Assembly (NCBI GenBank): GCA_048940925.1
Contig: JBHLOC010000030.1
Coordinates: 1-56,149 of the forward strand
Origin: Promethearchaeota archaeon
GTDB taxonomy: Archaea > Asgardarchaeota > Lokiarchaeia > Sigyniarchaeales > SOKP01
Reading direction: 5' to 3'
DNA: 56,149 nucleotides
Shown here piece after piece: positions 20,205 through 32,156 of the stretch. Below the pieces are notes generated by a model, which was not told where the DNA came from, made no database searches, and saw only the letters and a program-made list of their open reading frames with translations. The position numbers and the translations under genes were made by a program. Each line of letters begins with the position of its first letter. Positions within the stretch are counted from its first letter, which is position 1.

Positions 20205-21506
20205 TTAGCTATAAAATAGAGTTAAGAGAAATAAAAAGCCAATAGATAAAATCACATGAATTATTGCAAATGAAGCACCTACTTTTAATAATCTTTTATA
20301 GTTAAGGTTTTCAACACCATTGTTTTGAGCTATTTTGAGAGTTAACATATCACATGCTGCTCCTTGGGGAATCAAATTTCCTCCAATATTTATTCCAATT
20401 ATAAATGCAAAGAATAAGGGAATAGAAGGAACGGAAAACTCTTCAATTAATAATCCGATAATTGGTATAAAAATTAAGGCTGTTGGTGTGTTTGCTACAA
20501 AACCAGATATTAAACTAACCATAATTAAAATAACAAGACATACAATAAACGGATCTAGTAATTGAAAAGGTATTCCCTTAAAAAGATCTTCAAACCCAGC
20601 TTCTAAAAGACAGCCTATAACAACGTATAAAGCTATAAAGAAAAAAATTATTTCCCATTCAATTTCTTTAAAAAATTCACTTGTTTTTTTATTTGTAAAT
20701 TTTCTATTAATTATCACTAGTATAAATGCAGAAAACGCGGCCGTTAAATAAAGCAACGGCAAAATCGCAAATAAAATAATTGTTATGATTATTGCTATGC
20801 TGTTAAAATAAAACATTTTTTTATTTGAAATCATTACTTCCGCATCTATTAGATCTAATACCATTTTTTTATTAATATCTTCAATTATAGGTTCTTTACT
20901 CAAAATAAGTGTATCTATTAAGAAAGCTGTGATAAATAAGAGAAAAAAGGAAAAAACCCAATAATATTGTATAAAATATAAAGTATCCAACCCAAATTGA
21001 GTAGAAATTATGATATTTTCTCCACTTGAGAAGGGGGTTATAATTGACCCGATATTAATGCAAATTGTCATTCCGAGTAAATAGGTTCCCGCTCTAATCC
21101 GTAAGAAACGACATAGTCTAATTACTACAGGGGCTAAAATTAAAACAACAACAGCATCACTTATAATAGCTGCGAGAAGAGTTGTTATTATACAAATCAA
21201 ATAAAAAAATGTTCTTTCATTTCCTTTTGATATTTTAAAAAGTTTTACTGCTAAAAATTCTAAAATGTTTGAATCTTGAGCTATTTTTGTAATAATGCTC
21301 ATAGATAAAATCACAATAATAGCTTCCCATTCAATATATTTAGAAACAAATACAGTAATATCTATGTGTTTAGTTAAACCTATTATTGTTCCCGCTAATA
21401 AACATCCTATTAAAGAGATAGCTACAAAATCTAACTCTTTGATAGAATAGCTAATTAAAATAACAGCAAAAATGATAAAAATGATAATTAAAAGTATAAT
21501 ATCCAT
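20205..21506 (-). CDS. SLC13/ArsB/NhaD-superfamily anion permease
   Basis: About 11-12 TM helices; NIGSIITPFSSGENII, SGFVANTPT, NIGGNLIPQGAA. Confidence 0.85.
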   Translation of the reverse strand: MDIILLIIIFIIFAVILISYSIKELDFVAISLIGCLLAGTIIGLTKHIDITVFVSKYIEWEAIIVILSMSIITKIAQDSNILEFLAVKLFKISKGNERTFFYLICIITTLLAAIISDAVVVLILAPVVIRLCRFLRIRAGTYLLGMTICINIGSIITPFSSGENIIISTQFGLDTLYFIQYYWVFSFFLLFITAFLIDTLILSKEPIIEDINKKMVLDLIDAEVMISNKKMFYFNSIAIIITIILFAILPLLYLTAAFSAFILVIINRKFTNKKTSEFFKEIEWEIIFFFIALYVVIGCLLEAGFEDLFKGIPFQLLDPFIVCLVILIMVSLISGFVANTPTALIFIPIIGLLIEEFSVPSIPLFFAFIIGINIGGNLIPQGAACDMLTLKIAQNNGVENLNYKRLLKVGASFAIIHVILSIGFLFLLTLFYS

Positions 21507-21686
21507 TATAGTTGAGATGATAAGATATGAAATATTGAATAATTACTATAGAAATTAAATAAAAATTTAAAGTTAATTTATCTAGATATATCCATTGGGT
21601 GTATTTCATTCTTACAATTAGCTTTAAGACAATTAAAAAGTTATATATAATTTAAACCAATAATTTTCTATTAAATACAAAAATTT

Positions 21687-22808
21687 GTGTATTTAGTTTT
21701 GAATGGAGAGATCATTTTTCTTAGATTACTTGATGTAGGAAAAAGTATTAATTTAAGAGAACTTGCTTCTATTTTTCCAAGAATTACAGATAAACGAATT
21801 ATTAAAACTAAAGATACACCTTCTTACTTAGATTTTCCTAAACCTGTAACGATCGAACTTAAGCAAGATATTTCGTTAAAAGAAGACTTTATTAGAGATA
21901 TGAAATTTTTGGTTAAAATTTATGAAGATGGTGTTATTTCTCTTATAGGAAGATTGAAATTTATGAATCTACCTTTAGGAGAGTTACATAAAGTAAAAAA
22001 GATTAAGTTTTTCACTCAAGATGGTGAATTTGATATAAATAAATTTTTAAAATTTCATTCCAGCAAAATCTATGCACAAATAAAAAAATTTATTGATGAG
22101 GAGAATTATATTTTTGACTCCTCGCATTATGAAAAATACACTTTATTTTGCTTGACTGATAAAATAGAAAATCCTAATGAATTTCTTGAAAAAAATAAAA
22201 ATTATTTCGCAGCTCTTTTAATGGGTGAAAATCCTTCTTTAAATCTACATCTCAAGCAAGTAAATAATACATTAGAAAATTCCTTCTCTTTTTTAGAAAA
22301 TGATTTGGTAATTTTTGATTTTGATAGGTGTTTGATTATTGATCCAAATTGTGATTATGACGACATATTATTAATTACTGAAATTGCAAATTATCAATTA
22401 CTTGAATTACGTGTGCTAGATTATTTATTAGATAAAAGATTAACTTTAGCTGAAGCTGATATACAAGTAATTTATTTTAAAAATCGTGGCATACTAAAAA
22501 GATTAAAGAAAAGGGTGGGAAATTTACTCAGATTACGCCATGATTTAACATTTTTATTAGAAAATATCGAAAACGTTTCAAAGCTAATTGGTGATTATTA
22601 TTTATCTCAAATTTATAAATCTTTATCAAATTTATTTCAATTAAAACAATGGAGTAATAGTATCCGTCATCGTATTGAGACTTTAGGTGATATCTACAAT
22701 ATTGCTCAAACAAATATAAATGAAAAGTTTCTGCTATACCTCGAGATTCTATTAAGCTTTGTATTTATAATGGAATTTGTATTTTTAATTCTAGACTTTT
22801 TTAAATAA
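21687..22808 (+). CDS. RMD1/DUF155-like protein with a C-terminal TM helix
   Basis: QLLELR..D..LD, IGDYYLSQIY....LF....W...I..R, terminal LEILL hydrophobic helix. Confidence 0.65.
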   Translation: MYLVLNGEIIFLRLLDVGKSINLRELASIFPRITDKRIIKTKDTPSYLDFPKPVTIELKQDISLKEDFIRDMKFLVKIYEDGVISLIGRLKFMNLPLGELHKVKKIKFFTQDGEFDINKFLKFHSSKIYAQIKKFIDEENYIFDSSHYEKYTLFCLTDKIENPNEFLEKNKNYFAALLMGENPSLNLHLKQVNNTLENSFSFLENDLVIFDFDRCLIIDPNCDYDDILLITEIANYQLLELRVLDYLLDKRLTLAEADIQVIYFKNRGILKRLKKRVGNLLRLRHDLTFLLENIENVSKLIGDYYLSQIYKSLSNLFQLKQWSNSIRHRIETLGDIYNIAQTNINEKFLLYLEILLSFVFIMEFVFLILDFFK

Positions 22809-22867
22809 ATTAAATTGTATAAAATGGAAATAGAATTCGAAAAATTTAAATTATTTATATGAATAAT

Positions 22868-24820
22868 CTACGATTCTAAATCTTCTTTAATTATTTTCAA
22901 TCTTTGTTCCACAGCATTAATTATTTTTAATAACATTTCTTTATATGAATATCCCGCAAATTTAGACATTTTAGCTAAATGTCCATCCCAACACCATCCA
23001 GGATTTGGATTAACTTCCAATAATTTTGGATTACCATTAATATCAAGTCTCCAATCAAATCTTACATAATCTTTGCATTCTAATCTCTCAAATAATTTTA
23101 AAGAACATGATTCAATTAAATGAGTAGTTTCTTCCGGAAGTTCAGCAAGAATTGATTTAATATTCCAATAAGGAGAATCTGGAAGCCATTTAGCCTCATA
23201 TCCACAAATTTTCGGTAATTCTGGTGGTAAACTTGAATAATCTTCCTCTATTATCGGTAGGATGATATAATCATCAGGAGGATTTCCTATAATACCTAGT
23301 GTTAAATCTTTTCCAGTGAGGAATTGTTCAATTAAAATTGGTTTATCATATCCAAATTTTTCTCTAATTTCTGTAATTGCATTTAATAATTCTTCACCAT
23401 TATTAACCACACTTCTTTGAGTAATACCAAAGCTCGAATCTCCAAAATTAGGTTTTACAATAGCAGGAAAATATAAGGGTAAATCAATAATTTTATCTTC
23501 AGGTTTAATGTATATAGCTTCTGGTACGGGAATTTCTAACTCTTTAGCAATACCTCTTACTAATGATTTATCATAACAGAAAGCAAGACATTGTGGACCA
23601 GAACCAGAATAAGGAATTTTAAGCATTTCCATCAAAGCAGGGATATGTAATTCCTTTCGAGGATCATTATAATACCCTTCATCACATAAGTTAAAAATAT
23701 AATCAATTTTTCCTCTTGTCTTTATGACATCTTGAATTAAAGTATCATGGTTGTTTAAGTACGTAAAATTATATCCTTTTATATCTTTTAGAGCTGCTTT
23801 TAGTTGATCTATTGTATAAAGATCATCATCATCGAAGATTGTTGATGGTTTAAGGAAATCAGGTTTGTTTGGGTCTCCGAATAGAACTACTACATTTTTC
23901 TCTTTAAAATTGACTTTTTTCTTGATAGTTGTCCATTCTTTCTTTGCTATAGCACTTACTAAAAGTCTTCTTTCCATCATACCTAAATCTTGATCACGTT
24001 GAGATTCAGGTTTCATTATACCATGAAATATTATATCACTAAAACCAGATTTTTCTAATAACTCAAAAATTTGGTTTTTTGAATATAATCTTTCAGCGTA
24101 AAATTGATCTACGAGTACCCCTTTATTAACATGTGTAATAACTTCACGTGAAATTAACTTTTGTTTATCTAATGATAAAGATCTTTCACGACATACAAAA
24201 TATTCTTTATCGATCCATTCCCATGAACGTTCCTGAAAATTCTTTCTTAAATATTCCCCATCTGTAAGATCAATTAGAATTTTTCCCCATGGCTTAAGAG
24301 TGCGAAATGCTTCTTTTAATACTTTAAAATCATCATTTATAGCTTCAAAATAGCCGAAACTATTTCCTAGGATCATAATAAAATCAAAAGTATCAGAAGA
24401 ATACGGTAACTTTCGGGCATCTCCTTCACGAAATTTGCATATAATGCCATTCTTTTTCGCATTAGTTTTAGCTCTATGTATTAAGTATCCTGATCGATCC
24501 AAGCCCTCAACATTTTCAAACCCTCTCTTTGTTAATTCAATTGAATGGCGTCCTTGTCCACAACAAAGATCTAAAATATGATTCTCTGGTTTAATATTCA
24601 AAATCTTTGAAAAGATGTTAATTTCATATGAAGTAATATTCTTATCTTCAACAACATCTCCATCTGTTTTTAAATAATAAGAATTGAAAATCTTTTTCCA
24701 CCAATCTTTCCTAACATATTCCTCTAGATTGCTTAAAGGTCCTAGACAATGCGTATTATTAGTTATTCTCTTTCCTAAAGAAATATTTTTTCCTTTATTA
24801 CTCTCGGTTTGTATATTCAT
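22868..24820 (-). CDS. fusion of a class I SAM methyltransferase and a D-Ala-D-Ala-ligase-like ATP-grasp domain
   Basis: ILDLCCGQGRH, GDAR, NSFGYF; then YSGSG...CYDK, IVKP..GDSSFGI, EQFLTG, RFDWR, LEVNPNPG. Confidence 0.88.
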   Translation of the reverse strand: MNIQTESNKGKNISLGKRITNNTHCLGPLSNLEEYVRKDWWKKIFNSYYLKTDGDVVEDKNITSYEINIFSKILNIKPENHILDLCCGQGRHSIELTKRGFENVEGLDRSGYLIHRAKTNAKKNGIICKFREGDARKLPYSSDTFDFIMILGNSFGYFEAINDDFKVLKEAFRTLKPWGKILIDLTDGEYLRKNFQERSWEWIDKEYFVCRERSLSLDKQKLISREVITHVNKGVLVDQFYAERLYSKNQIFELLEKSGFSDIIFHGIMKPESQRDQDLGMMERRLLVSAIAKKEWTTIKKKVNFKEKNVVVLFGDPNKPDFLKPSTIFDDDDLYTIDQLKAALKDIKGYNFTYLNNHDTLIQDVIKTRGKIDYIFNLCDEGYYNDPRKELHIPALMEMLKIPYSGSGPQCLAFCYDKSLVRGIAKELEIPVPEAIYIKPEDKIIDLPLYFPAIVKPNFGDSSFGITQRSVVNNGEELLNAITEIREKFGYDKPILIEQFLTGKDLTLGIIGNPPDDYIILPIIEEDYSSLPPELPKICGYEAKWLPDSPYWNIKSILAELPEETTHLIESCSLKLFERLECKDYVRFDWRLDINGNPKLLEVNPNPGWCWDGHLAKMSKFAGYSYKEMLLKIINAVEQRLKIIKEDLES

Positions 24821-25658
24821 TCTTTCATTTAATCATTTTATTTTTAATATATTTCACTATTTAAACCTAAATTAATATAAATAAAATATAATTTTTCACA
24901 AAATATTCTCTCATAAACCCTGTGTAAATTAACAAAATTTCTTCTAAATACAATATTGTATGTAAACAATATGGCTTAAAATTTTGATGTCTTTTATTAT
25001 TATATTATCTTAATTTGACTTTTTTTAACTTAAAATTAACTATTCTATTTGAAATCAATAAAAATCAACTTTATTTATAAATCTTTCCATTACTATCTAT
25101 TAAAAATAAGATAACCTATTAAGCCTTTTACTGATATTTTTTTAGATATAATTCTTTAAAATATTTAAATTGTTTAAATAAAGGTTAAAAAAAGACAATA
25201 TAAATTAAAGTATTATTTTAGAGTTTTTTTAGATTTTATATTAGAACATAAACCTTCTTTAAGTTAAAAAAATGTGGTTTAGTATTACAAATTTTTATTG
25301 TTTGGGGTAATCAAATTATATAATTAATATATTATTTAAAATATCAACTATATGTAATTTTCTACTAAATTTAGAAAAAAATGTGAAATATAACATCATC
25401 TAAAAGTTTATTCTGCTTTTAATCACACAAAATTGGAAATATTTGAAATTTATGAAAATTAAAATTAGAACGAAATGAAAATTGTCCAGAATCTATCAAT
25501 TTATACCTAATATTTTTTTAAATTAGTCAATTATTAGGCTTTGATTTTAAAGAATTACATGAAAAAGAAATTAATATAAATGAATACTAATTATACATTT
25601 TTTAGAGTCTTAAATTAAATGAAATTTTATTATTCAAAATAATATATATAAGTTTAAA

Positions 25659-26318
25659 GTGGAAAGTCCAAAAACTTTAGCAATTCTAATATTAATTGGT
25701 GGAAAAAGCACACGATTTGGCACTGAAAAAGCGGCAATAGACGTTTTTGGGAAACCGTTAATTTTGTATCAAATAGAGGTCATATCTAAGTTTGATCAAG
25801 ATATCTTTTTGGTAGCTCATTCTGAAGAACAAGTTTTTAATTACCATAAAGAAATAGAATTTCCAAAAGAAGTTACCTTCATAATAGATGATCGTGAGAT
25901 CTTTGAACATACAAAAATATATAAACCCATGTTAGGAATATATTCAGGCTTTAAAGAACTATTTAGGTTAGGTTTTAAGAAGGCATTTTTATTATCATGT
26001 GATATGCCCTTAATTAAACCAAAAGTTTTAGAATTTATGATAAAAGAATCAGAAGGATTCGAATGTTGTATCCCAAGATGGAATAATGGCTTTTTAGAGC
26101 CATTTTTTGCTATTTATCCTGTTGAAAAAGGGTTTTATAAGGCTAAAGAAATTTTAACAACAGAAAATTATGGTTTATATAACTTCATTGAGAAAAGTTG
26201 GAAAATTAATTTTGTATCTGTTGAGAGATCAATTCAACCAATGGATCAAAGTTTAGTTACTTTAATAAATATAAAAGGACCAATTGATATTATTAAACTG
26301 GTAAAATTGTTTGAATAA
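25659..26318 (+). CDS. mobA: molybdenum cofactor guanylyltransferase MobA
   Basis: LIGGKSTRFGTEKA, PMLGIYSG, SCDMP, EPFFAIY. Confidence 0.85.
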   Translation: MESPKTLAILILIGGKSTRFGTEKAAIDVFGKPLILYQIEVISKFDQDIFLVAHSEEQVFNYHKEIEFPKEVTFIIDDREIFEHTKIYKPMLGIYSGFKELFRLGFKKAFLLSCDMPLIKPKVLEFMIKESEGFECCIPRWNNGFLEPFFAIYPVEKGFYKAKEILTTENYGLYNFIEKSWKINFVSVERSIQPMDQSLVTLINIKGPIDIIKLVKLFE

Positions 26319-27501: not shown

Positions 27502-28713
27502 TTATACAAAAAGGTCTGAAGAACAAAAACTATCGGTTTTGTTTATCATGATTTTGTCTACAGCTTTCAAAAAGTCATCATTGGAAATTATATCAGAGTT
27601 CCTTCTGATAGCATACATTCCAGCTTCTGTACAAATACCTTTAATATCTGAACCAGTAATCCCCTCTGTAAGAGAAACTAGAGCTTTAATACTTATATTT
27701 TGTTCTAAATTAAGTTTCCTCATATGAATTTTAAATATTGATTCTCGTGCTTCTTCATTTGGTAAAGGAAATTCTATAATCCTATCAAATCGACCAGGTC
27801 TTAATATTGCAGGATCTAATATATCATATCTGTTTGTAGCGGCAATAAATTTAACATCTCCTCTCTGATCAAATCCATCTAATTCACTCAATAGTTGCAT
27901 TAATGTTCTATTTACTTCTCTATCACCTGAAGTTGCATCTTCCATCCTTACTGCACCTATTGCATCTAGTTCATCGATAAATAAAATAGATGGTGCTTTT
28001 TGTCTTGCTAAATTGAAAATATCCCGTACATATTGAGCACCTTCTCCAATAAATTTTTGTACTAATTCAGAGCCTATCACTTTTATAAATGTTGCGTTTG
28101 CTTCATGTGCCACTGCTTTTGCTAATAATGTTTTACCTGTTCCAGGATATCCATGAAAAAGGACACCTCTAGGTGGTTCGATCCCAATTCTTTCAAATAA
28201 TTCTGGTTTTTTTAATGGTAATTCTACAACTTCTCTAACTTCTTGAATTTGCTCATTTAAACCACCAATATCGTCATATGAAACATCAATTAGAGTGTCT
28301 ATTACCTCCATCCCTTTGATAAATGGATCGACTTCTTTCGGTAATATTTCCATTACTGTATAATTTCTTTGATTCAATGCTATATTTGACCCAGGAATTA
28401 TTTTCTCTTTTTGTATTTTATGACTTACCTTAACAATATAACTAGCATTGGTAGTGCATCTAATTATTACACGTTCAAGTTTATCATCTAAAACATCAGT
28501 TATTTGTCCTGTTAATAATGGAGGTTCACATAAACGATCTATCTCTAATCTTAAACTTTTTACTTCATGTTCCAACCGGGATAATTCTGATCTTACAATA
28601 TTTTTTTCTAATTCAATATCCTTAATTTTTTTCTCAAGATGATTAATATAGGAGGTAATTTTTTTAATATCCTCAGATCTATTTCTTCCATTATCTGTTT
28701 CTGTTGAGTTCAT
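27502..28713 (-). CDS. pan: proteasome-activating nucleotidase PAN
   Basis: N-terminal coiled coil + OB fold, YDDIGGL, PGTGKT, ELVQKFIGEG, FIDELD, RPGRFDR, C-terminal LFV. Confidence 0.95.
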   Translation of the reverse strand: MNSTETDNGRNRSEDIKKITSYINHLEKKIKDIELEKNIVRSELSRLEHEVKSLRLEIDRLCEPPLLTGQITDVLDDKLERVIIRCTTNASYIVKVSHKIQKEKIIPGSNIALNQRNYTVMEILPKEVDPFIKGMEVIDTLIDVSYDDIGGLNEQIQEVREVVELPLKKPELFERIGIEPPRGVLFHGYPGTGKTLLAKAVAHEANATFIKVIGSELVQKFIGEGAQYVRDIFNLARQKAPSILFIDELDAIGAVRMEDATSGDREVNRTLMQLLSELDGFDQRGDVKFIAATNRYDILDPAILRPGRFDRIIEFPLPNEEARESIFKIHMRKLNLEQNISIKALVSLTEGITGSDIKGICTEAGMYAIRRNSDIISNDDFLKAVDKIMINKTDSFCSSDLFV

Positions 28714-29503
28714 CTCTATTTTTAAATTTTATAATATCCTGTGAATTGTAATCTGTGTTAATTTAAAAAAATTATCTGTTGAAATATTTCTACTTTTGTT
28801 CTTTTTTACACTAATATGTTATATCCCCATATGCTAGACTTTCTAAGGTTTTGGGTCATAAATCTATAATTATGTTTAATTAAACCTAAAATCAATATCT
28901 GAAATTAATTAAAACCAAACCAATTTATAAACTTTTTTAAAACATATGCTATAAGTAAGAAAAATTTAATGGATTTATATCTATTCATTTTAATGATTGA
29001 ATACATTTACATTTATTATTAGGACCTTATTTATATCAAGGAAATAAACTTTAATCAGATTAACTATTACTTTTTCATTTATTATAAATTTTGGAAAAAT
29101 CTACAATTTCTGATGATGACTTTTGGATTATCTTCAAATTAAAATATATAAAAAGAAGATTTGATTTAAAAAAGCGACTCTTTAATTAATCTAGAGAAAT
29201 TTTTCAGTTTAATTAAAGAATCTATAAGAAATATGAAAAATAAAAATATACTATTAGAATTGAGTTACTTTTTTAAATACAAAAGGCTTCATTATCTTAA
29301 TATTTATTAAGGTAAATCAATTAGAGTGCGATTTAATCATTTCTTTGATATCAAATCTTACTATGTTCTGACCATCTTTTTAAATTTGAATTGTTATTAT
29401 TAAAACTAGAAAGATTTAAATATGTAATATGTTTTTCAACGTAATTGATAATATATATTAATTTTAACCTAATAAAAAGAATAGAAAAAATTAGCTAAGA
29501 AAA

Positions 29504-29638
29504 ATGAATTCAAAACAAAAAAATCAGAAGAAAAAGTATGAGGAAGAAGATGAATGGGATGAGGACGAAGAGTACGATGAAGATGATGATTGGGAGGATG
29601 ATTGGGAAGACGATGAAGAATTCGAAGAAGATTATTAA
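29504..29638 (+). CDS. 44-aa acidic, Trp-containing disordered microprotein (Sem1/DSS1-like motifs); absent from the ORF track
   Basis: Manual translation: MNSKQKNQKKKYEEEDEWDEDEEYDEDDDWEDDWEDDEEFEEDY*. Clean GAN-codon periodicity inside AT-rich DNA. Confidence 0.7.
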   Translation: MNSKQKNQKKKYEEEDEWDEDEEYDEDDDWEDDWEDDEEFEEDY

Positions 29639-29852
29639 TAAATAACTTAAATCCTGTTCTCCACTATCTATAATTCAGAAAAAGCATAATAGAACTAATT
29701 TTTTTTAGAACTGTTTCTCACTATACTCTAATATCTATGATATTGTAGATTTTCAGAGATAGCTCCAATTTTAAAGGTATTATTCATATTTTCAATTGTT
29801 TATGACTGAAAATTCGTAATAATTTTTTGGAAAGAAAGTTTGTTAAAAAATA

Positions 29853-32156
29853 ATGAATACTGAGGAATTTACGTTCTTAGATAAGACAATTCCAATTGAA
29901 AAGAGAGATAAATTTACTGCTTCTTATAAAATTAAGTCTTATAAAACTAAATTAAAACTAATGGAAGATCGAAAAATTCCTCAAAAAAAAATTGCTGATG
30001 TGTTAAATCATTTATTTTCTAAAGATAGACTAATCTCAAATAAAACTAAAAGTTCTATTTTTAAGATTATCTATTCTCAAAATGATAGAATTATTGTAAC
30101 TATAACAGATCATGGAAAAGAAATAATAAGAAATCGAGATAAATTAATCAAAAATTATGGTTGGTTTTTTTTTGTATCTGAAACAGATAAAGAAAAAGTA
30201 TCATCTAAAATAAAAAAAACCAAAAAAAAAGATGAGAAAAAAGAAGAAAAAACAATTAATATAGAAAGTTTTCAACATGATGAGTTCGTTATTCCTTTAA
30301 AACAAAAGGAAAACATGCGAGCACTATATAATACCAAAGAATATAGATATTTTTTGAAATTAATCAAATCAGAGAATCTATTTCAAATGCCCATAAAAGA
30401 CGTTCTTAATGATTTCTTTATAAATAATACTCTAATCCCTCTAGAGGAGAAACAAGGTATTAAGAAAATCATCTATTATAAGAAAGAAAAGGTTATTGTT
30501 ATTAAATCTCTTATTGGTGATGAGATGTATGAAAATCTAGAAACTTTAGTGAAAAAATATGGATGGTACTTTTATATCACTGGTGTTCCTGTCGGAAAAA
30601 GTGACCTTTCGATTGCTATTGATAAAGTTGAAAGAAAATTTCAATCGGATTACTTTTCTACAGTTTCCTTCAAGGAAGAATCAAATAACCTAAAAGATCC
30701 TAGGGTGAGTATATATCCTATAGTTCTAAAACCAAACCATAATTGCCATATTTTGGGTATAGGAAATTTTAATATCTTATTAGATTGTGGACTTTCAGAG
30801 AAAGATGAAGAAAATGAACAAGAAGGTGATATAATATATATAGAAGAATATCTTCAGAATTTACCTCAAATGATCTTAGACGAAGAGAAAAGAAGAAAAA
30901 ATAGTTTAAGTGAAGAATCAAATAAGACTAAATTCGATGATATTCACGATAAACATAAAATTGATGCAATTTTTATATCACATAGCCATTATGATCACCT
31001 CTCAGGACTTAAAGAATTAATTAAAATATTTCCAGATATTCCTATATTATGCTCTCGTATAACTTTAGATTTATTCTTACTTAGAGATTCTAATTTTTTA
31101 AAACAAGAAAATTATGAGGAAATCGAAGAAGAAGAATATCAAAATATAATTAAAAATGTTATATATGTTGAAAATGGTACTAGGATTGAATTTAAAGAAA
31201 AAAATTGTTTTCTCTCTTTTTATCATGCTGGGCATATGCCTGGCGCATTAATGATGTTAGCTAATGCTAATGAATTTAAATTTCTTTATACAGGGGATTA
31301 CACTTATCATGATATTACACCATTCGCAGGAACAAGACGTTTTTTAGATCAAATTCCTTGTCCTATAGATTACTTATTAATTGATGGCACTAGTGCAGGG
31401 GAAGATTTTGGCAATATCTCTGATCAATTTCATAGTTTAATTTTATTTTTAGAACAAAAAGCAGAATATGGAGATAATTCTCTGATTGGTGCAGATCCTT
31501 CCAGTTTAGCAATTAGCTTTATGTTAATCTTCTGGAGATATTTTAGAAAATTACAGTTAAGACGAGGTTTCAAAAAACGTCCAAACATATATGTAGATAT
31601 GATGGTTAGAAAAAATATTCAGGTAATTAATCATCGATACAAATATATTTATGGTCCAATCTCTAGATTAATCAAAGATAAAGCTAATCCCTTCAATAGT
31701 ATAAAATTTAGATGGTTTGATCAGGATAATCTCGATTTTTTACGAAAGAAAAATAATATTATTATCTCTCATCCTCCAGATCTTTCTTATGGATTAATAA
31801 GAAATATTTTAAATATTGTTGGACGCAGTCCACATAATTTTGTGTTTCTAGCAGGTTCAATTCATGAATCACCAGGTTCAGATTTATTAGAAGGTGCTGA
31901 AGAAATTGAATTTTCTGAAACCTGGAAAATGCCCTTTCGAGCCTTTTTACTAAATACATTTGCTCCAAACATTAAAATAAAACTACATGCTGATAAAAAT
32001 CAGTTACAGGAAATGATAAAAGCTTTAGAACCGAAAGAAGTATGCTTTTTCCATCAATCTGCTAAAAATTTAACAGAAGTTGTAGAATTTGTGAAAGAGT
32101 TAGGAGTAGAAAAAGTCTCATTGCCACAAAAGAGAAAACTCACGATTTTAAATTAA
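29853..32156 (+). CDS. beta-CASP metallo-beta-lactamase ribonuclease with a duplicated N-terminal domain
   Basis: LLDCG, SHSHYDH, AGHMPG, YTGD, LHAD, FFH. Confidence 0.85.
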   Translation: MNTEEFTFLDKTIPIEKRDKFTASYKIKSYKTKLKLMEDRKIPQKKIADVLNHLFSKDRLISNKTKSSIFKIIYSQNDRIIVTITDHGKEIIRNRDKLIKNYGWFFFVSETDKEKVSSKIKKTKKKDEKKEEKTINIESFQHDEFVIPLKQKENMRALYNTKEYRYFLKLIKSENLFQMPIKDVLNDFFINNTLIPLEEKQGIKKIIYYKKEKVIVIKSLIGDEMYENLETLVKKYGWYFYITGVPVGKSDLSIAIDKVERKFQSDYFSTVSFKEESNNLKDPRVSIYPIVLKPNHNCHILGIGNFNILLDCGLSEKDEENEQEGDIIYIEEYLQNLPQMILDEEKRRKNSLSEESNKTKFDDIHDKHKIDAIFISHSHYDHLSGLKELIKIFPDIPILCSRITLDLFLLRDSNFLKQENYEEIEEEEYQNIIKNVIYVENGTRIEFKEKNCFLSFYHAGHMPGALMMLANANEFKFLYTGDYTYHDITPFAGTRRFLDQIPCPIDYLLIDGTSAGEDFGNISDQFHSLILFLEQKAEYGDNSLIGADPSSLAISFMLIFWRYFRKLQLRRGFKKRPNIYVDMMVRKNIQVINHRYKYIYGPISRLIKDKANPFNSIKFRWFDQDNLDFLRKKNNIIISHPPDLSYGLIRNILNIVGRSPHNFVFLAGSIHESPGSDLLEGAEEIEFSETWKMPFRAFLLNTFAPNIKIKLHADKNQLQEMIKALEPKEVCFFHQSAKNLTEVVEFVKELGVEKVSLPQKRKLTILN

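Follow-up and report, generated by a model that had tools for sequence, protein, structure and literature searches.

The 44-residue open reading frame at positions 29504-29638 of the window (by which is meant the whole 56,149-nt stretch of DNA analysed here) is a real, conserved and selected gene, known here from sequence alone. Its product, a hyper-acidic microprotein, is not a detectable relative of eukaryotic Sem1/DSS1, as judged by profile searches. New here are the home of its family beside a gene for a methyltransferase fused to a Ddl-like ATP-grasp domain (MTase-Ddl), the cassette-like gain and loss of the two genes, the relocation of the microprotein gene in this genome, and a paralogue. 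To our knowledge, small disordered acidic adaptors of the DSS1, CSNAP and prothymosin-alpha type have been regarded as eukaryotic inventions; a Hodarchaeota-type Asgard archaeon is now shown to carry genes, conserved and under selection, for peptides that are physically alike, with look-alikes widespread in its phylum. The family also gains a concrete candidate partner, the methyltransferase-ATP-grasp cassette that is gained and lost with the microprotein gene, and the attractive account of the original prediction, in which a forerunner of Sem1 is encoded beside a proteasomal ATPase, is corrected as unsupported.

The microprotein gene, its product and its family

The gene and its associated signals are located as follows.

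29374..29648, + strand: conserved gene module comprising promoter, leader and open reading frame (72-81% identity by blastn to 21 related loci)
29408..29423, + strand: BRE-like purine run and TATA box TTTAAATAT (TATA at 29415-29423), nearly invariant among 22 aligned loci
29440..29448, + strand: conserved CGTAATTGA, ~25 nt past the TATA box and present in all aligned loci; probable transcription start region
29449..29503, + strand: A/U-rich leader of ~55 nt, with TTAGCTAAG where relatives have GAGGT or GGAG
29504..29638, + strand: coding sequence of the microprotein (44 aa), residue for residue as in the original prediction
29699..29706, + strand: T8 run, 61 nt beyond the stop codon and read from the sequence; likely archaeal terminator

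Both motifs named in the original prediction are present in the microprotein, WEDDWEDD at residues 30-37 and EDDEEFEED at residues 35-43, so placed that they overlap. The flanks are also as described there, with the gene for a PAN-type ATPase 790 nt upstream on the opposite strand and the start of a metallo-beta-lactamase protein 215 nt downstream. That the frame had been missed by annotation is plausible, the exact protein being absent from a collection of 15 billion proteins but present in the ESM Atlas. The N-terminal part of the protein reads MNSKQKNQKKKY and is followed by a 32-residue tail in which every residue is Asp or Glu except W18, Y24, W30, W34, F40 and Y44. The layout is that of a lysine-rich head (residues 1-11), an aromatic residue at position 12 and the acidic tail, and the net charge over the 44 residues is -21. 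Structure prediction with AlphaFold from 22 sequences gave a pLDDT of 62 and a pTM of 0.12 and placed no secondary structure, which is what an intrinsically disordered chain should give, and a feature search of the ESM Atlas returned a top score of 0.76, under any useful level.

Frames of this composition are rare in the genome (4.8 Mb, 30% GC). Among 113,572 stop-to-stop frames of 20-120 aa, three have at least 15 Asp or Glu within 24 residues, one being the window frame and another its paralogue, which argues that the window frame is not a product of chance. A very basic 35-aa frame overlapping it in the +1 register (29538-29645) was considered as a gene and rejected, since 17 of 19 relatives have that register closed by a stop; the window has it open only because a conserved Val codon, GTA, which supplies a TAG in the +1 frame, has become GAA.

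Translated searches of related genomes, followed by a profile built from eight sequences, recovered the same small frame in 21 of the 53 genomes of the genus, while the microprotein HMM had no match in 23 other genera of the order; the HMM overlooks many family members because the sequence evolves fast. The loci at which the profile detects a microprotein gene, 22 in number, are called type A below. A collection of 5.8 billion proteins contains 13 family members, one of them annotated as a hypothetical protein of 'Candidatus Hodarchaeota archaeon' (a phylum of the Asgard kingdom), and 1.84 billion representative proteins, searched exhaustively with the profile, gave 11 matches, all of the same microprotein family and 33-114 aa in length. 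On the reach of these searches, the family is one of fast-evolving microproteins belonging to a single Hodarchaeota-type family-level clade. Searches of the literature, whether for DSS1 in archaea or for an account of this microprotein family, returned nothing relevant.

The reading frame bears the marks of selection as protein. Across 19 of 19 full-length relatives the acidic frame is the sole open one, with stops in the other frames in 4-19 of the 19; all insertions and deletions among relatives are multiples of three, including one duplication of 10 codons; the median pairwise dN/dS is 0.25 at a dS of ~1; and third codon positions carry twice the variation of first and second positions. Among the 22 members W18 is invariant and W34 is kept in 20. 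The C-terminal residue, Tyr here, is Phe, Asn or Asp in relatives, and Cys is absent. An in-frame stop or truncation occurs in three of the 22 relatives. The longest match, of 114 aa on a 1.5-kb metagenome contig, is a case in which the microprotein stop codon reads as Trp and the frame continues downstream, where it enters what looks like the surviving C-terminal part of a MobA-like gene, a sign that this neighbour is decaying locally. This protein was the sole find of a search for longer forms, and it was discarded as a fusion or Rosetta-stone clue, being a stop-codon read-through.

The AAACATTTAAATAT-type box of the promoter also precedes the paralogue and other genes of this genome. GAGGT or GGAG stands 6-8 nt ahead of the start codon (ATG, TTG or GTG among relatives) in 13 of 15 aligned leaders; this ribosome-binding site is absent from the window copy and from locus L029, both relocated copies (those of the window and of genome G094) having lost it. 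A search of Rfam over 28600-29900 at E<=1 gave zero matches, and RNAalifold predicted zero pairs in the aligned leaders, that is, no consensus RNA structure.

Home position, relocation and paralogue

The genes that define the home of the family and the present surroundings of the window copy are listed below.

20205-25658: accessory cassette of a CitMHS-type permease, the MTase-Ddl fusion and a 373-aa protein of no recognised family, to which relatives add the microprotein
22868..24820, - strand: methyltransferase and Ddl-like ATP-grasp fusion gene (Pfam Methyltransf_25/31/11 and Dala_Dala_lig_C)
24821..25658, no strand: gap of 838 nt between the MTase-Ddl and MobA-like genes, the vacated home site, with no acidic ORF
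25659-26318, + strand: MobA-like nucleotidyltransferase gene, facing the MTase-Ddl gene across the gap
27502..28713, - strand: PAN-type proteasomal AAA ATPase gene (Pfam AAA, AAA_lid_3 and proteasomal OB domains)
29853..32156, + strand: metallo-beta-lactamase and weak beta-CASP protein gene (beta-CASP and RMMBL matches below Pfam cut-offs)

An acidic aromatic micro-ORF lies within ~1.15 kb upstream of the fusion gene in 22 of the 29 MTase-Ddl loci that have enough upstream sequence (genera g1, g22, g15, g16 and g21). In g1 and g22 it diverges from the fusion gene, whereas in g15, g16 and g21 it points the same way as that gene and lies 130-520 nt upstream of it. Viewed from the microprotein, the methyltransferase gene is divergent and ~820 nt upstream in 16 of the 22 type-A loci, and the MobA-like gene is directly downstream (~90 nt) in 17. 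Divergent acidic-Trp micro-ORFs missed by the profile occupy the syntenic site in three further genomes (G012, G006 and G132, the last from another genus). Gene order across these loci shows the home of the family to be just upstream of the MTase-Ddl-like ATP-grasp fusion gene.

Genome by genome, genus g1 has 36 genomes with both genes, two and two with one alone, and 14 with neither; in genus g22 the enzyme is found in 15 of 15 genomes positive for a codon pattern of two acid-acid-Trp-acid units, and the pattern in none of 18 enzyme-negative genomes, all of these counts overstating the independent support because the co-occurring genomes are close kin. Genomes that have neither gene are also without the permease (CitMHS) and the 373-aa protein between IscS and the MobA-like gene; the four genes, being absent together, thus behave as one accessory cassette. 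This distribution shows, at the level of gene content, that the microprotein and enzyme genes are gained and lost together within that cassette. The ATP-grasp domain of the enzyme (pI 5.9) is nearest to D-Ala-D-Ala ligases of solved structure, yet scores far below their curated cut-offs.

The surroundings of the window copy are exceptional, for PAN upstream and the beta-CASP gene downstream are found in two of the 22 type-A loci, namely the window and G094. By blastn the similarity of the window to its relatives is confined to 29374-29648 with nothing robust outside, and the relative closest by DNA (81%) keeps the microprotein gene ahead of the MobA-like gene. The limited extent of the similarity, the empty home gap and the gene order of the relatives together show that a gene module of ~270 bp was moved, as the genome comparison reconstructs it, by ~4.7 kb into the gap between the PAN and beta-CASP-like genes. 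Shuffled AT-rich controls for blastn gave a 95th percentile of 37 bits and a maximum of 42; two other candidate similarities were set aside as lying at that level, namely a second conserved patch ~600 nt upstream (28869-28970; 37-46 bits) and a likeness between the two gaps of the window (31 bits).

The order in G006 is MTase-Ddl, microprotein, MobA-like, TFB, beta-CASP and NifU, without PAN, and in G078 and G076, which belong to the same genus as the window genome, the genes for IscS, the MobA-like protein and the beta-CASP protein follow in direct succession, the whole cassette missing. PAN is absent from the corresponding position in all three of these genomes, and the beta-CASP gene directly follows TFB in G006 and the MobA-like gene in G078 and G076. 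Judged by this gene order, PAN is a lineage-specific arrival at its window position and the beta-CASP-like gene is a backbone gene of the region. Since the module was relocated, its PAN/beta-CASP neighbourhood is incidental, and the functional tie to either gene that the original prediction had drawn from position is not supported, resting as it did on an arrangement seen in 2/22 loci and replaced in G006 by TFB followed by beta-CASP. As separate observations on PAN, the window protein ends in ...SSDLFV, without a penultimate Tyr, and at a locus of genus g16 (L121) the MTase-Ddl gene is immediately followed by a PAN-like gene.

The scan for hyper-acidic frames also located a paralogue of 54 aa on another contig of the genome (C70:25314-25478; locus L031:1501-1665), with a lysine run, an acidic tail studded with Tyr and Trp and ending in DEIYS, and upstream of it the same type of promoter and TATA box and an AGGAGG site. 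Genes of this kind, called type B, were found in ten genomes, nine from the genus itself and one from genus g16. At all 10 loci type B lies between a divergent RHH-like gene of 187 aa and a gene for a basic coiled-coil protein (pI ~9.5, no Pfam family) that starts within ~85 nt. Alignment of the type A and type B profiles with hhalign gave a probability of 91%, a figure possibly inflated by composition. In genera g15 and g21 a single microprotein gene has the RHH-like gene on one side and the MTase-Ddl gene on the other, a position which suggests that types A and B arose by duplication of one ancestral locus.

Comparison with known acidic proteins and candidate modes of action

The original prediction had set the microprotein beside eukaryotic Sem1/DSS1, a disordered acidic subunit found in the proteasome lid and in other PCI complexes, whose motifs it gave as EEDDEFEEF and WEDNWDDD, and had proposed a possible ancestral relationship. 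Neither homology nor ancestry was borne out. The frame matched no family in an hmmscan against Pfam at E<=10, and the Sem1/DSS1 family itself (PF05160) had no match in six frames of the whole genome at E<=10. Neither the family profile nor the single sequence matched any PDB chain at E<=10, in a set that includes DSS1/Sem1 chains from 26S proteasome, BRCA2 and TREX-2 entries, and the profile search returned the microprotein's own family alone. The resemblance is one of physical kind, both proteins being small, disordered and very acidic, with Trp and Phe spaced in acidic runs. Three regions are conserved in DSS1, among them a C-terminal one that is transiently helical, and the protein tethers RPN3 and RPN7, which are PCI subunits (PMC8442969); the microprotein has neither these three regions nor that helix. 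Its own layout is a basic head followed by one acidic-aromatic tract that runs to the C-terminus, with no helix in the AlphaFold model. It is also unlike DSS1 in its length (44 aa against ~70-89 aa), in possessing a lysine-rich head, in lacking a conserved link to proteasome genes (next to PAN in 2/22 loci), and in being confined by sequence search to one archaeal family-level clade.

Three other small acidic proteins were compared by description. CSNAP is a small Phe/Asp-rich acidic subunit of the COP9 signalosome whose function resides in aromatic residues flanked by acidic ones, and like the microprotein it is a short, disordered acidic peptide that is extended rather than helical (PMC8442969). 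It differs in that CSNAP binds PCI/MPN complexes, whereas the PCI-domain profile matches in this genome are unspecific, control genomes giving matches too. Prothymosin-alpha, of ~110 aa and without aromatic residues, remains disordered in its polyelectrolyte complex with linker histone H1. The microprotein shares with it an extreme net negative charge, the lack of a fold and the presence of a short basic stretch within the chain, but has an invariant Trp that suggests specific anchoring and has no linked histone-like partner. LysW-type amino-group carriers are small acidic proteins with a zinc ribbon and a C-terminal Glu, encoded near the gene for the ATP-grasp ligase LysX. Here, likewise, a small acidic protein is encoded beside an ATP-grasp gene and travels with it (22/29 loci), but the protein has no Cys or zinc ribbon, its C-terminus is Tyr or Phe instead of the carrier Glu, and the neighbouring ATP-grasp domain is of the Ddl type and not of the RimK/LysX type.

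The mechanism that we favour, tentatively and at somewhat less than an even chance, is that the disordered microprotein works with a product of its own MTase-ATP-grasp cassette. An independently transcribed gene would yield a 44-residue disordered diblock of lysine-rich head and hyper-acidic tail bearing Trp, Tyr and Phe; the polyanionic tail would dock on a partner protein without folding, held by its charge and by the conserved aromatic anchors; the partner would most likely be a product of the same cassette; and the ATP-grasp/methyltransferase enzyme would have in the microprotein either a subunit for regulation or docking or its peptide substrate or carrier. Against this reading, the two genes could be neighbours in this one family-level clade partly through inheritance of gene order, the closest counterparts of the ATP-grasp domain are ligases acting on small molecules and not the protein-modifying RimK, LysX and TTL, and the mildly acidic enzyme presents no obvious electrostatic partner. 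The gene is moreover detached from the cassette here and in G094, the paralogue sits beside other genes, and the window copy is without the ribosome-binding site kept by most relatives. A tail with this charge and no predicted fold might instead act as a general polyelectrolyte binder, shielding or chaperoning very basic proteins, such as nucleic-acid-binding or coiled-coil proteins, or mimicking nucleic acid, much as prothymosin-alpha acts on histone H1, with no special tie to the cassette. The constant position of type B beside a basic coiled-coil gene speaks for such a role, as do the single gene of g21, flanked by the coiled-coil/RHH-like pair on one side and by the MTase-Ddl gene on the other, and the presence of a basic TFB (pI 9.5) and the basic beta-CASP protein (pI 8.6) in the same neighbourhood. 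This explanation rests on composition, however, and nearly any acidic peptide would fit it; type A has no conserved basic-protein neighbour and its pattern of gain and loss tracks the enzyme cassette, and we regard general binding as rather unlikely.

The remaining explanations fare less well. Functional analogy to DSS1/Sem1, as distinct from homology, would have the microprotein use acidic-aromatic motifs to bind ubiquitin-like proteins or components of the proteasome. The disordered ubiquitin-binding motif is aromatic-x3-aromatic, set among acidic residues and preferably with Trp as the aromatic; the core of S. pombe Dss1 is WENNW, and WEDDW, the core of an affinity-improved Dss1 variant (PMC9381478), is the sequence found in the microprotein, which fits the published motif. 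The genome encodes ubiquitin-family and E2 proteins above Pfam cut-offs, and PAN is the divergent neighbour here. Its authors call the motif loose, however, and it occurs in 1-2% of random peptides (PMC9381478). W-x3-W is present in 13 of the 22 members of the family, and shuffles of the same residues have aromatic pairs at i+3/i+4 no less often, so the likeness to DSS1 is one of composition, and the caution in the original prediction that low complexity might have produced it by convergence was right. Given also the lack of PF05160 and PDB matches, a PAN neighbourhood at two of 22 loci, and no ubiquitin, E1/E2 or JAMM gene as a conserved neighbour, the analogy is possible but unsupported, and we think it improbable. 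A stronger form, in which the microprotein is a free-standing acidic-Trp adaptor, convergent or very ancient and predating eukaryotes, that binds ubiquitin-like proteins or the proteasome through WEDDW-type motifs, is quite improbable; if true, it would place a DSS1-like adaptor in the archaeal lineage closest to eukaryotes. Regulation of the downstream beta-CASP-like nuclease by nucleic-acid mimicry, the other role originally proposed, would fit a nuclease-like gene 215 nt away on the same strand whose product is basic, and the two genes also lie within ~3 kb in G006. Direct adjacency is nevertheless seen in 2/22 loci, the beta-CASP gene is present in G078 and G076, which have no microprotein, and the T8 run separates the two genes here, so that such a role is very improbable. 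Equally hard to credit is a non-functional origin as a GA-rich low-complexity tract, a copy decaying after relocation, or an RNA element. The missing ribosome-binding site of the window copy and the stops or truncations in 3/22 relatives would be expected of decay, but the frame is intact and, across the family, under purifying selection, the window copy keeps a fully conserved promoter, stops interrupt the alternative frames in 17-19 of 19 relatives, and neither an Rfam match nor a conserved RNA structure was found.

Similar peptides elsewhere in the phylum

The codon pattern of two acid-acid-Trp-acid units was found in 113 of 400 genomes of the phylum and, as the reversed control, in 0 of 400. 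In a sample of 30 pattern loci across the phylum, 21 were micro-ORFs of 30-84 aa, many with a basic head of the GPKKK type. The window ORF fits this class, whose members are ~25-85 aa long, with more than half of their residues Asp or Glu, spaced Trp and a short Lys-rich N-terminus. Orthology by shared position extends over five genera of one family-level clade, and beyond that clade architecture alone is held in common.

In another family of the phylum, proteins of ~290-300 aa carry a C-terminal acidic-Trp tail (L087-L090, L093 and L096), so that such a tail is also found attached to a folded protein; the N-terminal part of these proteins looks, by eye, like the sliding clamp PCNA. Within the same order as the window, an 83-aa protein (L101, on G039:C116) has four CxxC pairs in a zinc-ribbon-like arrangement and an acidic-Trp tail at its end, an architecture that recalls the LysW-type carrier proteins.
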